From NCBI GenBank assembly GCA_964016885.1, contig OZ024753.1:43338001-43402000 (forward strand): a stretch of 64,000 bases of DNA. Reading direction: 5' to 3'. The position numbers were made by a program, and so were the translations under genes. Below are positions 8,866 through 63,873 of the stretch, piece by piece. The notes below the pieces were generated by a model that saw only the letters and a program-made list of their open reading frames with translations, ran no database searches and had not been told where the DNA came from. This DNA is from Eledone cirrhosa (lineage: Eukaryota). Positions within the stretch are counted from its first letter, which is position 1. The number at the start of each line of letters is the position of its first letter.

Positions 8866-9009
8866 ACTGATACTGCCTGCCATCTATTTGCCACAAGGGT
8901 GTTAGGATGAATGGGACATTACAAGGATAGGTTATATATATATATATATATATATATATATATATATATGGAGGAAGTTCTAGTTCACTTGAAGCATTGT
9001 GTAATGAGG

Positions 9010-9382
9010 TATAAACGTTTGGATTTGTAAAGCCAAACAATGCAGGTATGGACATAGAATAAAAATGCAAATGCAAAAGATATTGTTGACAATTAGTCTT
9101 TTACCTTAAATTTATTTAAATGTCCTTAATTTTCGAGATAATATCTCTTCTTCGGAGGGAAATAAAGCAGTTAAACCAGTGTTCTAAATAGCTTGCCAAC
9201 CTATTTAGAACACTGGTTTAATCGCTTTACTTCCCTCCGAAGAAGAGATATTATCTCGAAAATTAAGGACATTTAAATAAATTTAAGGTAAAAGACTAAT
9301 TGTCAACAATATCTTTTGCATTTGCATTTTTATTCTATGTCCATACCTGCATTGTTTGGCTTTACAAATCCAAAGGTTTATA
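9010..9382. mobile_element. 373-bp near-perfect palindrome in a (TA)n tract, with a degenerate hammerhead motif at 9234-9268
   Basis: Arms 9010-9191 and 9201-9382 are reverse complements with only a few mismatches; loop cttgccaac. Confidence 0.9.
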
Positions 9383-10555
9383 TATATATATATATGTTGG
9401 AGGAGGGGGGGGGGGCGTTACAAGGATTGGATGGTGACGTGGTAGTGATTTATTTAATGAAATAATATAAAACATTAAAAATATATTTAGGGTTATCTAT
9501 CCTAATATTAATGGTAGAAGCAGCAGTAGTAATAATCATATCAACATAACAACAGCAAATGGTGTGAGAACAAGTGATTGAAAGAATTGCTTTGGAAGAA
9601 CAAAAAATAAACTATTGAATGATGCTTTGAAATCTAAATACCATTATTTTAAATGTTAAAAGGAAGAACAAAAAAAAAAACCCCCCAAAACAAACACTTT
9701 TTTTTTTTTTCAAATGAAAATATAAATATTCTTATACAAACAAACACACAAATAAGAGAAATTGGAGGAGAAAAAAGTTTTGAAGAAATGTGTTTCATAA
9801 ATCAGGCTTAATGAGACAAGATGAGGAGCATTATTTCAATCATGCGCTGTTAATGAGCAAATATGGTGAAGAATAATATCTGCAAGACTAAACACATTTC
9901 CAAACTGTTCCCTAACGAAAATAGAATGTTATCAGACATTAACATTCCAACTTTCTGATTTGGTAGTTGGACAACTGCAAATACTCAGCATATTTATTAA
10001 ACCAGCTGTATCTGGCCAAAATTCTCTCACCTTTTTTCTATTCAAACCAGTTGTAACTAGCTGCTCATACTTATGTTGTTGTTTTTTCCCCGGAAATCAT
10101 CATACTTCGTGGCATAAAGTTCTGATCATTTTACGTTCTGATTTCAAATCTCGCTGAGGCTAGCTTTGCCTTTCATCTTTACAGGGTCAAGAAAAATAAA
10201 GTACTATTAATACACTGGGGCTGTCATTGGTCTTGTTCCTAAATCAGAAATTATTATTGTTATTAGTAGTAGTATTTACAGCCCTTTATATTCTGATTTT
10301 AGATTTCATAGGCCCCTCAAATAACAAAACGCATACACACATATAAGTATATATATATATATATATATATATATATATATATATATATAATACACACACA
10401 CAAGGGGGGCGAAAGAGAGAGAAGGAGGAGTGTTGTTTGATGAGGTAGGGGGCCTCAGAGCTTTACTTTCCACCACGACCACCTGCCGATAAATCTGATT
10501 CTACATCTACAATACGTTAATGTATAATAAATATATATATATACATACATATATA

Positions 10556-10745
10556 GGAAAATGTTTGACCCCCGACGGCTTGAGCTCCGTCGTTGGGGTC
10601 AAACATTTTCCTATTACCCACTCTACTACTTAGGGTAGTAGAGTCACGACCCTGACAGCTGAGCTCCGGCCGTTTCGACAGCTATGTATGAACTATAGCT
10701 GTTGAAACGGCTGGAACTCAGCCGTTGGGGTCCTGACTATTTTCC
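10556..10745. mobile_element. TA-embedded triple-hairpin element built from hammerhead 3' halves (same family as 33481 and 41098)
   Basis: Hairpins at 10556-10611, 10620-10644 and 10648-10732; GAAAcggctggaactcagccgTTggggtc. Confidence 0.75.
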
Positions 10746-11701
10746 TATATATAGTCTCATTATGTGTATTTTAATCTGTGATTAAGTCTACTGAAGTAGC
10801 TGTGACATGATCACAGCTGAACGTATTTCTATAGCAAGAGTTATGTATGTATATATATTATACATAAACATAAAGTTTTTGTATATGAGTTTATATACAC
10901 CTCTATCATTAGAATAAACATAAAGTTCCTTTCCACAGATCCAAATGAATATTGAAATCCATACAAATACATACAAAAGAATGTAAACAAATTTAAAAAC
11001 TGAAGCTTCACAAAATATACAGCATATAGGATGATCTACTGGATATATATTGTAAAGAATTTGTTTTATTGAGAACATTAAAATCTCCTTTTTTCTACAT
11101 GTTATTTGATGGATTTCAAATTAATTTCCTGTTTAAATCATATTGCTTTGTAAACCCCCCCCCCCAAAAAAAAACAACAATAATAATAATAATAATAATA
11201 TATTGTTTGTTTGTATCTTTATCGCCATTAAAATATTTTTATATATTTCAACGATATTCATAAAATGTCATTAGTAATTTTAAATAATGTTTTTCAGGTT
11301 GTGTTTTTTTTGTTTTTATTTTAATTACTTTATATTTTTTTAATTCACGCACCCCCTCCCTTCCCTCTAGAACTTTTAAAGACATTTTTATCAATATTTT
11401 TATTTCATTCATATAAACAAAAATAAAAGAATAAAAGAATAAAGAAATATACTTATTTTCATAACTAAATTGAAAGTGTTGAAATAAAAGTGGGATGGAC
11501 ATCGTTTATTTTATGTACCTTAATTATATGACCCCCCTCCCCCTTTTTTTTTTTGCATTTTACACTCACCTTGAATGATATATACAATTGTCCGTTTTTT
11601 TACCTGCTTGCATCATCCCTTTATCTATTTCAAATTAAACATATTTTCCACACCCCACTTATATACATTTTATTCATATGGTTCTCAACCTTTTCACCGC
11701 C

Positions 11702-12213
11702 AAAGACACTGTCTATGTCTTTAACGCTTTCATTACCATATTTCTAATGAAAGACACTGTCTATGTCATTAACCCTTTCATTGCCATATTTCTAAGGAAA
11801 GACACTATCTATGTCTTTAACCCTTTCATTACCATATTTCTAATAAAAGACACTGTCTATGTCTTTAACCCTTCCATTGCATTATTTCTGATAAAAGACA
11901 CTATTTCTTTAACCCTTTCATTACCATATTTCTAATAAAAGACACTATCTATGTCTTTAACCCTTTCATTACCATATTTCTAATAAAAGTCACTGTCTAT
12001 GTCTTTAACCCTTTCATTACCATATTTCTAATAAAAGACACTATCTATGTCTTTAACCCTTTCATTACCATATTTCTAATAAAAGACACTGTCTATGTCT
12101 TTAACCCTTTCATTACCATATTTCTAATAAAAGACACTATCTATGTCTTTAACCCTTTCATTACCATATTTCTAATAAAAGACACTGTCTATGTCTTTAA
12201 CACTTTCATTACC
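11702..12213. repeat. 48-bp minisatellite derived from a piggyBac-like MITE end
   Basis: ttaaccctttcattaccatatttctaataaaagacactgtctatgtct, about 10 copies; matches the reverse complement of the MITE end at about 13925-13980. Confidence 0.85.
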
Positions 12214-61750: not shown

Positions 61751-62181
61751 CTCATCGGTTAGACAACGAATAGAGCGAGAGAGAAGGGGGGGAGACTCAT
61801 TGGTTAGACAACGAATAGAGACAGAGAGAAAAGGGGAGACTCATTGGTTAGACAACGAATAGAGCGAGAGAGAGGGGGGAGGGGGAGACTCGTTGGTTAG
61901 ACAACGAATAGAGCAAGAGAGAGGGGGAGACTCATTGGTTAGACAACGAATAGAGCGAGAGAGAGGGGGAGGGGGAGACTCATTGGTTAGACAACGAATA
62001 GAGCGAGAGAGAGAGGGGGAGGGGGAGACTCATTGGTTAGACAACGAATAGAGAGAGAGAGGGGGGAGGGGGAGACTCATTGGTTAGACAACGAATAGAG
62101 CGAGAGAGAGGGGGGAGGGGGAGACTCATTGGTTAGACGAATAGAGAGAGAGAGAAAGACTCTCATCGGTTAGACAACCAA
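61751..62181. repeat. 38-50 bp minisatellite, 10 copies, CCAAT-containing
   Basis: ctcattggttagacaacgaatagagcgagagagagggggaga. Confidence 0.9.
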
Positions 62182-62443
62182 TATATATTGGTATAGGGTC
62201 GGATGCCGTTCTTTGCAGCAAAGAGTTACGGCCCTTTATGGTCTGCGTTGAAATCTTGCCGAGGTTAACTTTGCCTTTCATCCTTACGAGGTCGATAAAA
62301 TAAAGTACCAGTAATACACTGGGATAATTGCTGGCCTTGTGCCAAAAGTAGAAACAAATATATATATATATATATATATATATATATATATATAAAATAA
62401 AGTTAAATAAAAGTCAAATGATTAAAATTTAGCTTCGTTTATT

Positions 62444-62498
62444 ACTGCTATATATATTTCAGTGACAGCCATCTTTGGCTGTGACCTCTTCAGGCAGT
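62444..62498 (-). ncRNA. Type I hammerhead ribozyme in a TA-embedded insert (about 62394-62685)
   Basis: actgc-CTGAAGA-ggtcacagcca aaga tggctgtcact-GAAA-tatata-TA-gcagt-aataaa. Confidence 0.85.
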
Positions 62499-63806
62499 TT
62501 GAATTAGTATGGTATAGGCAAGTACATATGTTGTTTAGGTGTATGATATTGTCAATACTCTGATATGCCCAGTTCCTTGCTGGGTTGTTAATTCACTGGG
62601 GAACTGGAGTCATATGAATTCAAACAAACGAATTTTAGTGTCACAGGTCCCCTTCTCCTCTCATTGGTCAGTTATTAGTGTTGTCTATATATATATATAT
62701 ATAGAAATGCCAGTAGAAGGAAGATGTAGTAGAGCAAGACTAAGAAAGACATGGGCGGAGGTGGTGAGAGTGGACCTCAGATCGCTGAAGCTCACGGAGG
62801 AGATGACGAAGGACCGTGACAAGTGGAGAGATGCTGTGCTGAATAGGACCCGTCCCACCCTTGCAAGCAGGGAAAAGTGGATGTAAAATGATGATGATGA
62901 TATATACAGACAGAGAGAGAGAGAGAGAGAGAGGCCCATACCATCATAATCTACTTTCATATAACATTTTAAAACATCGTTTTACTTCTACTACCATAAT
63001 AATAATAATGATTTCTTATATAGGCACAAGGCCAGCAATTTTGGGTGAGGTGAAAAATCGATAAAATTGACCCCCAGTGCATTACTGGTGCTTTATTTTA
63101 TTAACCCTATAAGGATGATAGGCAAAGCTGACCTTGGCAATATTTGAACTCAGAATGTAAAAGGCCATAACTCTATGCCTCGAAGCAGGATATCTGACAC
63201 TCTGATAATGGTTTCTGGTTGAGGCACAACACCAGCAGTTTCGAGGGGAAGGGGACAGTTGATTATATCAACCCCAGTATTAAACTGGTACTTTATTTAT
63301 ATTAACTTTAGAAGGATGAAAGGCAAAGTTGACCTCAGCAGGATTTGAACTCAGAAGGTAAAGGGCCGTAACTAATGATCCTGGTAATCCACAGCAATAA
63401 TATACCAGCCAGCCATAGAACCTCTGTTGCCACTTCCATCCTGCCATCTATCTCAATCATGAGCCAGGACTTGGATTGTCACCAAGTCCTTACTGTACCA
63501 TTCTATGAGGTTTCCTCACCTAAATTGTTTCTTAACATAACAACCCATCTCACCCATGCAAGCATGGAAAAATGGACATTAATCGATGATGATGATACAC
63601 ACACACACATATCTTTCTATCTATCTATCTATCTTAATAAAGAAACATATCTATCTATCTATCTATCACACACACACACACACACACATATCCCAGGTTC
63701 AATCGGAGGTAACCACAGTAAGTAAGGTACTCAATACTTAGCAAAATATAAATATTTAATATAGAAATAGCTTCAACAGGACTAGAACCATATTACTTGG
63801 ACAGTC

Positions 63807-63857
63807 GGCTTCCTGATGATTTCTCCCGAATAAAACAGTTCTAGTCCTGTAGAAGCC
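63807..63857 (+). ncRNA. Hammerhead fold with GAAA>AAAA change (probably inactive)
   Basis: ggcttc-CTGATGA-tttc tccc gaat-AAAA-cag ttctagtc ctg-TA-gaagcc. Confidence 0.6.
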
Positions 63858-63873
63858 ATATATATATTTTATA

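Follow-up and report, generated by a model that had tools for sequence, protein, structure and literature searches.

The question raised by this locus is what kind of element has inserted repeatedly into its (TA)n tracts and whether the inserts carry hammerhead ribozymes (HHRs). The window analyzed is a stretch of 64,000 nucleotides (nt) from contig OZ024753.1 of Eledone cirrhosa (positions 43,338,001-43,402,000; the host genome comprises 3.0 Gb in 1796 contigs), in which simple repeats and minisatellites are plentiful. A preliminary description of the window reported ten inserts edged by TA/CA tracts, all of which were found at roughly the same positions, and they fall into several unrelated families (A to H in the window), as it had proposed. 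It is highly likely that the inserts are truncated ends of Penelope-like elements (PLEs) or of tandem units that are located in (TA)n and carry predicted ribozymes, which is our best overall explanation, and there is little doubt that PLEs are their origin. Judged by sequence, they are new Hydra-clade and retrozyme families of a published class, so HHR-bearing PLE ends in (TA)n will not surprise a specialist. What appears to be new is a fixed 5' boundary of family C within its predicted ribozyme.

Hammerhead motifs in the window and in the genome

The core CUGANGA/GAAA/UH, three helices and an open stem I, which together characterize a type I HHR, are all present in four motifs of the window. 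These motifs, at +39232-39282, +42066-42115, -62493-62449 and +58229-58294, were detected by a strict type I scan, for which 410 local dinucleotide shuffles served as control. The shuffles contained 0.017 motifs on average and 1 at most, and the motif frequency is thus far above that of dinucleotide-shuffled sequence. An HHR fold, full or partial, had been attributed to every insert. Intact canonical type I HHRs were confirmed in three of the ten, whereas the other seven carry halves, point-mutated copies or non-canonical versions. In addition, the intact HHR of family H (58229) and a permuted candidate at 33693-33878 had been overlooked. Rfam gave no HHR match in the window at the gathering score, and the 150 of 469 matches at E≤5 that were listed comprised no hammerhead, all 150 being microRNA models placed on hairpins or TA/CA repeats. 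The short palindromic stem III reported earlier was found in some families only, stem III being 4-6 bp long in families C, G and H. An AATAAA by the cleavage site was likewise found in families A, B, D and F, but it was absent near the site in families C, E, G and H and does not mark the element end.

Although the inserts had been called unique, all nine insert queries searched were multicopy. The first-look candidates per query ranged from 880 to 5384 (A, 1412; B2, 1719; two family C queries, 5384 and 1765; D, 880; E, 2724; F, 2267; G, 4082; H, 1624). Copies of the B1 insert (39100) and of the 10556 insert were counted in 60 sampled loci only, not genome-wide, and formed 3 and 8 insertion clusters, respectively. 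A relaxed HHR scan of 119 evenly spaced 10-kb stretches (1.19 Mb) found 52 canonical HHRs. In the first 60 of these stretches (600 kb), for which a shuffle control was made, there were 19 canonical HHRs compared with a shuffle mean of 0.07 and a maximum of 2 (197 shuffles). Extrapolation yields 131,000 canonical motifs genome-wide (95% interval 98,000-172,000), or 2.8 per 64 kb. The high abundance suggested earlier is therefore borne out, but the density of the window, 4 motifs per 64 kb, is ordinary for this genome. The scale of ~1e5 motifs in many families is accompanied by a young family whose uninterrupted frame is suited to biochemistry. The axolotl genome is roughly tenfold larger. A section title of a retrozyme preprint gives up to 120,000 in axolotl (10.64898/2026.07.22.740005), which is similar to the estimate made here for a 3-Gb genome, whereas the counts given in the available text of Cervera and de la Pena (2014; PMC4209133) are 2,000-9,000 motifs per genome. 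The words "hammerhead", "ribozyme" and "Hydra" are absent from the main text of a 2026 paper on curated repeats of Octopus vulgaris.

Parent elements and insertion into (TA)n

A frame for a reverse transcriptase (RT) linked to a GIY-YIG endonuclease was sought and found upstream of several family ends. For family A, 16 of 40 scored copies were taken and the 8 kb beside each were examined; several of them run on into a PLE frame. At one fetched genomic locus (L017; fetched loci are designated by L numbers), positions 2013-4697 contain an uninterrupted 894-codon frame with YRDD and IVY..YIG, corresponding to an RT with a C-terminal GIY-YIG. The frame also contains RWK (RRMRWKAF), DKT (HADKTNN) and a CxCx5C linker, and its C-terminal GIY-YIG lacks CCHH and possesses CxxC/CxH. 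These marks are those by which section 11 of PMC8557442 defines the Hydra clade, and family A is therefore assigned as Hydra-type. The window insert of family A is 99% identical to the 3' end of the L017 element, and the 40 scored copies are 99% identical as well. Pfam had no family for the 894-codon frame, which had 896 homologues at E≤1e-20 among 8000 scored, mostly without a name. A search of sequencing runs with family A listed no RNA run containing it, which does not bear on whether it is expressed.

The CxCx5C linker, the lack of CCHH and the CxxC and CxH around E and N are common to families A, B2 and C, and the start of the family C frame encodes RLRWR. A local translated search of the fetched loci placed a Hydra endonuclease upstream of the HHR at ~1.2 kb in family A, 0.7-1.3 kb in family C and 1.3-1.4 kb in family B2. 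The B2 linkage was seen in L215 and L208, and in L208 another repeat interrupts it. A Hydra endonuclease is also linked to the HHRs of family L, which was found outside the window. Among the Hydra-linked families, A and B2 have a canonical HHR, while the HHR of family C is of the U3-A8 type; that of the probable Hydra family F has a core with two changes. The B1 HHR is of the same type as the Hydra-linked B2 HHR. Judging by protein motifs, which served to assign the clade, the PLEs whose 3' ends make up families A, B2 and C belong to the Hydra clade, and the parent of family F probably does too. Two observations speak against extending this parentage to every family: the link of family F to an endonuclease crosses short TA tracts, and no parent open reading frame (ORF) was found for families B1, G and H when one was sought. 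A link of family G to an endonuclease in L147 was rejected, because the two are separated by TA tracts and other repeats. Numerous additional, divergent Hydra-type endonucleases, 28-52% identical to that of family A, were observed (L014, L016, L080, L128, L147, L199, L209 and L221), and there were 23 matches to Hydra-type endonucleases in the 1.19-Mb sample.

Family D follows a C-terminal GIY-YIG endonuclease of the CCHH type, which is not that of Hydra (Pfam GIY-YIG, E 0.0016, below the curated cut-off). With its CCHH-like pattern and a Cx4Cx7C linker, its parent appears to be a canonical PLE of the Neptune, Nematis or Penelope/Poseidon clade, among which the type of linker decides. Variants of PLE HHRs reportedly described by Lunse and colleagues in 2017 may bear on the cores of families D and F. 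Families E and H consist of non-coding units with one type I HHR each, which were mostly seen as partial tandems. Together with family J, found outside the window, they are best described as retrozyme-like non-coding units. Family J is a young 595-nt non-coding tandem unit with 99% identity, a U3-A8 HHR and a long domain II (L146:2373-3070, L275 and C1:193445861-193454099); it forms inverted arrays of ~6+7 units that end in (TA)n and had 1330 first-look candidates. Metazoan non-LTR retrozymes resemble families E, H and J: they, too, are non-coding units in tandem, measure a few hundred nt and contain a type I HHR, and a PLE origin has been proposed for them (available text of PMC7229834; Li et al., 2026, 10.64898/2026.07.22.740005). 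Different from them, the units found here have inverted arms of the PLE type and fixed 3' ends and target (TA)n, and family J combines its 595 nt with U3-A8. The origin from non-autonomous or truncated PLEs or retrozymes suggested in the preliminary description holds as far as PLEs and retrozymes are concerned. Most of the inserts, however, appear to be 5'-truncated ends of the 3' untranslated regions (UTRs) of coding PLEs, mainly of the Hydra clade, and only families E and H resemble non-coding tandem retrozymes.

To speak of an unannotated system was an overstatement. Hydra PLEs with canonical HHRs and insertion in (TA)n, including Hydra-1_Obim, which is listed with a (TA)n preference, are already in the available text of Craig et al. 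(2021; PMC8557442). The elements found here share with that clade RWK, DKT, CxCx5C, the lack of CCHH, CxxC/CxH, canonical HHRs (in families A and B2) and (TA)n insertion as well as inverted, 5'-truncated copies and an optional tail, and U.U at 10.1/11.1 is common in its HHR table. The Hydra PLEs described there are mostly <3 kb long, a descriptive rather than diagnostic trait of the clade, whereas the family A unit is longer at ~4.1 kb with a 1.2-kb 3' UTR. The tails found here are 80-100 nt in families A, C and F. Moreover, one octopus family is listed there, whereas many families are found here. A short-word search of the supplement of PMC8557442, in which line breaks can hide matches, returned none of four motifs from this study.

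A typical insertion consists of (TA)n, an inverted arm, a direct arm and (TA)n, and a tail of 40-100 nt is often present on one arm. Each family has two fixed 3' ends, one with and one without the tail. The insertion into (TA)n proposed earlier was confirmed by the canonical HHRs of the sample, of which, after exclusion of two close to locus ends, 49/50 had a (TA)5 at most 200 nt downstream (background 14%). The outer end was followed by (TA)3 within 4 nt in 18/22 cases for family A, 69/77 for family C, 8/12 for family F and 12/12 for family D. Moreover, 11 of 12 element ends overlapped the TA phase by at least 3 nt (3-8 nt), compared with 6.3% of the UTR positions (211/3336). In read-through copies of families A and C, the outer end is followed by a common short leader with a small hairpin and then by the ORF. 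Short copies of both families stop before this conserved hairpin beyond the tail and, lacking it, are likely dead on arrival. The leader and hairpin of the two families are alike, with different inner hairpin sequences (L013:4140-4200; L289 and L290, minus strand, after the tail), and are a candidate RT binding site. In L055, L064, L058 and L057, inverted arms of family A or of another Hydra family are joined to family C arms with no TA in between. These may be cross-family co-insertions of two RNAs or deletions between neighbors; the apparent A+C chimeras among them (L055, L064 and L058) came from a biased search.

The inserts are likely written into (TA)n by target-primed reverse transcription. 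The endonuclease would nick (TA)n, and the nicked end would pair with a short UA run at either of two internal RNA start sites, just before the conserved hairpin. One cDNA would then be made per target strand, and both would join head to head. Most cDNAs would stop early, leaving pieces without the hairpin. Families E and H would likely be copied in trans from self-processed non-coding RNAs. PAc, a Poseidon element of Anolis, behaves similarly in vitro, where both target strands were cut and extended and two internal start sites defined the tail (available text of Frangieh et al., 2024; PMC11167929). It is also similar in that its start is close to a stem-loop in the 5' region of the coding unit and in that uncleaved RNA is the template (PMC11167929). 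We consider it probable that priming beside the hairpin is assisted by UA, to which the overlap of element ends with the TA phase points. Three points weigh against this account of insertion. The initiation of PAc is reported in the same text as not homologous to the cut DNA, different from the overlap in 11 of 12 ends found here; the anchors for that overlap count were picked by eye; and for family G none of 21 outer-end anchors was followed by (TA)3 within 4 nt, where the anchor stopped short and TA came a few nt later in most.

A 5' boundary within the predicted family C ribozyme

The HHR of long family C copies possesses a 5-bp stem I, a UUGANAA core (U3-A8), G10.1-C11.1, a stem II of 9-10 bp, a loop II of ~40 nt and a stem III of 5-6 bp. 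The exact U3-A8 pattern gave 1766 matches, whereas the reversed-pattern control gave none. Five matches of the U3-A8 scan in L151 were an AT minisatellite and had been removed before counting. At most positions of the variant, pairing is present in 14-16 of 16 copies, and only N7 of the core varies freely (T in 5, G in 5, A in 3 and C in 3 of the 16). A canonical CUGANGA upstream of the C 3' half was rejected as the core, as its 59 matches had unrelated upstream sequence; the real core is U3-A8. In the available text of PMC4209133, solo PLE HHRs were found genome-wide and the U3-A8 core was described in Schistosoma Cercyon (Cervera and de la Pena, 2014). The minimal PLE HHRs described there are also similar to those found here in being solo motifs from truncated PLEs, in their palindromic stem III, in the extra base before 10.1 (family D) and in U3-A8 covariation (family C). 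Family C differs from them by pairing U3-A8 with a stem III of 5-6 bp and with a long loop II in which short copies begin. None of the Hydra HHRs tabulated in PMC8557442 has U3-A8 or a 40-nt loop II, unlike family C. With U3-A8 and a stem III of this length, the predicted C ribozyme could fold as a monomer.

The 5' ends of 52 C halves, taken from loci unselected for family C, are concentrated in loop II. Upstream of G12, the interval of 5-25 nt contains 43 of them and that of 32-47 nt another 3; the range of 48-355 nt is empty, and the remaining 6 are at ≥356 nt. A constant drop-off predicts 25 ends in 48-355 (P 9e-9, or 6e-5 with n halved because arms pair). The boundary is alike in arms with and without the tail (medians 18 and 14), which indicates that the stop follows position rather than length. 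The ends peak at an initiator-like word, T(T/C)AGT, whose A is at -18 and which is conserved in 7/7 C subfamily examples; a TATA-like word 30-31 nt upstream is present in 6/7. The labels initiator and TATA follow the usual consensus sequences. In the window copy at 41098..41499, the TATA-like word is in the 5' arm of stem II, and the A of the initiator-like TCAGT is at 41155, 18 nt before G12 (41137). In contigs from two sequencing runs, X1 and X4, strand-switch joints were found at -8 to -23 (L255 1516-1531). A drop of contig depth by ~35-fold across loop II was left unused, as it is not copy number and is confounded by subfamily divergence.

These results suggest that the family C boundary may well be a transcription start inside loop II, a reading to which we give somewhat less than even weight. 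PLE promoters are located in the pseudo-long terminal repeat (pseudo-LTR or pLTR), and a TATA and initiator pair is described for a rotifer pLTR in the available text of PMC3846280. The stop of short copies would then likely be the RNA 5' end. The 5' ribozyme copy would be without its core, and only the downstream copy could cut. A transcription start is not placed inside the HHR in the available text on PAc (PMC11167929), different from what is proposed for family C. The literature searched, with most subscription papers and bioRxiv supplements outside reach, did not describe a transcription start within loop II of a PLE HHR. The boundary gives a precise prediction of the RNA 5' end position.

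A fuller model for family C, which at present is doubtful, would have the promoter in the ribozyme and the cut made by the downstream copy, leaving a terminal redundancy of ~40 nt from the start to the cut site. RT would start at UA sites paired to nicked (TA)n and run off the RNA 5' end, like retroviral strong-stop DNA. It would have to jump across the redundancy to copy the whole element, and failed jumps would account for the short hairpin copies, which number in the tens of thousands. The function of HHRs in endonuclease-containing (EN+) PLEs is stated to be unclear in the literature. If true, the model would give PLE hammerheads a defined job and would explain pseudo-LTR formation without an RNA circle.

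Several observations count against a transcription start in loop II or against the ribozyme variant itself. The sharp 5' boundary appears to be specific to family C. The 5' ends of family A copies are spread over 119-230 nt (10/11), and those of families B and L were read against diverged references. A search of the genome for an accumulation of copy ends at the predicted cut site revealed none. One C subfamily has no TATA-like word, and the D. virilis Penelope promoter is TATA-less. The runs X1 and X4 may be the source of the assembly and hence are not surely independent of it. A single sequence (L293) accounts for most of the double changes in stem II, and some long copies (L179, L211 and L187) have a C3.A8 mismatch core, possibly an intermediate between C3-G8 and U3-A8.

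It is also possible, though on balance we would not expect it, that RT stalls or folds back after unwinding stem II, or at an alternative hairpin over GAAA, and that the cDNAs join there while the RNA itself starts further upstream. Most short C copies are self-inverted with microhomology at the junction, the boundary is just past the 3' arm of a 9-10 bp stem II, and palindromic junctions in rotifer PLEs are read as self-priming in the available text of PMC3846280. However, the C stops reach up to ~12 nt into the loop rather than lying at the helix base, and the start position is unchanged in copies whose junction is with TA or foreign sequence (L198, L134, L273 and L176). Moreover, the equally long stem II of families A and B appears to have no such boundary, and the word at -18 is kept while the surrounding loop diverges.

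It is unlikely that the words in loop II of family C are a 3' splice acceptor, with a branch-like CTAAT/CTGAT followed by TTAG/CAG, and that the short copies derive from spliced or lariat RNA. In its favor, branch-like words precede the AG dinucleotides that end at -17 and -12, the HHR of D. virilis Penelope contains a mapped intron end, and introns are known to overlap with promoters of PLEs. Yet no common upstream exon precedes the boundary, 11/52 C copies extend to -19..-25, which is inside the supposed intron, and no GT-AG skip was found at the site among the joints listed.

Beyond the boundary, all inserts might be non-autonomous ribozyme elements in their own right (SINE-like or retrozymes) and spread as short units, which we regard as very unlikely. 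The non-coding tandem units of families E, H and J, with arrays of 595-nt units at 99% identity in family J, would agree with it, as would families B1 and G, for which no ORF was found. Families A, B2, C and D, however, continue upstream into PLE frames, and in families A and C the short copies do not reach the conserved hairpin. A chance origin of the motifs in DNA rich in AT and repeats is virtually impossible and, for the canonical families, already refuted by the shuffle controls: the missing Rfam match, modest single-motif folding z-scores (-3.0 to +1.5) and the minisatellite matches in L151 would suit it, but the counts of 4 against 0.017 in the window, 19 against 0.07 per 600 kb and 1766 against 0 for the reversed U3-A8 pattern, and a core constrained except at N7, contradict it.

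Individual inserts and other repeats of the window

TABLE 1. HHR-related inserts and repeats of the window, with positions in the window.
Feature	Position	Strand	Parts and motif
Family D fold-back insertion	8970..9382	both	minus arm 8970-9199 including 40-nt tail 8970-9009; plus arm 9192-9382
Two family C fold-back remnants	10553-10629 and 10640-10748	both	HHR 3' halves only
Family C fold-back insertion	33481..33680	both	minus arm 33481-33534 to inner 3' end; plus arm 33547-33680 with tail
TA-flanked repeat, non-circularly permuted (S-G-C) HHR candidate	33693..33878	+	site block 33791-33802, GAAA 33813, CUGAUGA 33840
Family E fragment, ~400-nt non-coding tandem unit (retrozyme-like)	33943..34294	-	HHR 34140-34100
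Family F, 3' end of probable Hydra PLE	38820..38975	-	long stem II, GAAA-CGCGCG-UC, non-canonical core CCGUCGA (two changes)
Family B1, inverted tail piece and direct arm	39100..39335	+	intact canonical HHR, core 39232, predicted cut after 39282
Family C, long arm 41098-41467 (minus) and 33-nt tail end (plus)	41098..41499	-	complete U3-A8 HHR 41204-41110, G5A here
Family B2, short inverted tail piece and direct arm 41982-42160	41937..42160	+	intact canonical HHR, core 42066, predicted cut after 42115
Family H, ~520-nt non-coding tandem unit (retrozyme-like)	58047..58492	+	intact canonical HHR 58221-58302, 8-bp stem I, 5-bp stem III
Family A, 292-nt 3' end of young Hydra-clade PLE (clade by protein motifs)	62394..62685	-	intact canonical HHR 62498-62444; stops at inner 3' end
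Family G fold-back insertion	63691..63857	both	inverted tail-bearing arm 63691-63788; direct arm with HHR 63807-63857

The family D insert contains a minimal HHR-like motif at +9234-9268, with U4C, an extra A before G10.1-C11.1, no loop 3 and a 3-bp stem I, and the U4C minimal motif is present in both of its arms. Only the GAAA-stem III-UC half was found in the 10556 and 33481 inserts. Both arms of the latter (33481..33680) start 14 nt upstream of G12, and the 5' half of the ribozyme is absent. The HHR of the family E fragment has a canonical core, a palindromic A-CUAG-U stem III and U.U at 10.1/11.1, and its stem II is weak here. The family G HHR of the window has G12A and also U.U at 10.1/11.1; GAAA is found in most of its aligned relatives and G12A in some.

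For the repeat at 33693-33878, hand reading gave the S-G-C order, an HHR type defined in the available text of PMC10085705, and two paired stems but no clear stem II; relatives are changed on both sides. The repeat had 12 BLAST matches in the fetched loci, and a generic scan of the sample for HHRs in S-G-C order gave 0 matches. The repeat at 34295-34440 is distinct from family E. Together with 33182-33275, which had 5 matches in the 1.19-Mb sample, it represents further TA-flanked repeat ends in which no HHR was recognized.

A very abundant repeat, with matches in >100 fetched loci, is present at 8260, 22030, 40030, 42260, 49330, 62180 and 62990, and we take it to be similar to a short interspersed element (SINE). 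A dispersed repeat of ~1.2 kb at 12690-13860 has frames of 110-170 codons and is likely a fragment of a long interspersed element (LINE). Four minisatellite arrays of 47-48 bp units (683-798, 5980-6617, 26335-27747 and 46897-48141) have related units, apparently amplified from a dispersed repeat. Finally, the family H unit is inserted within an AT-rich tandem array of ~41-bp units at 57080-58580.

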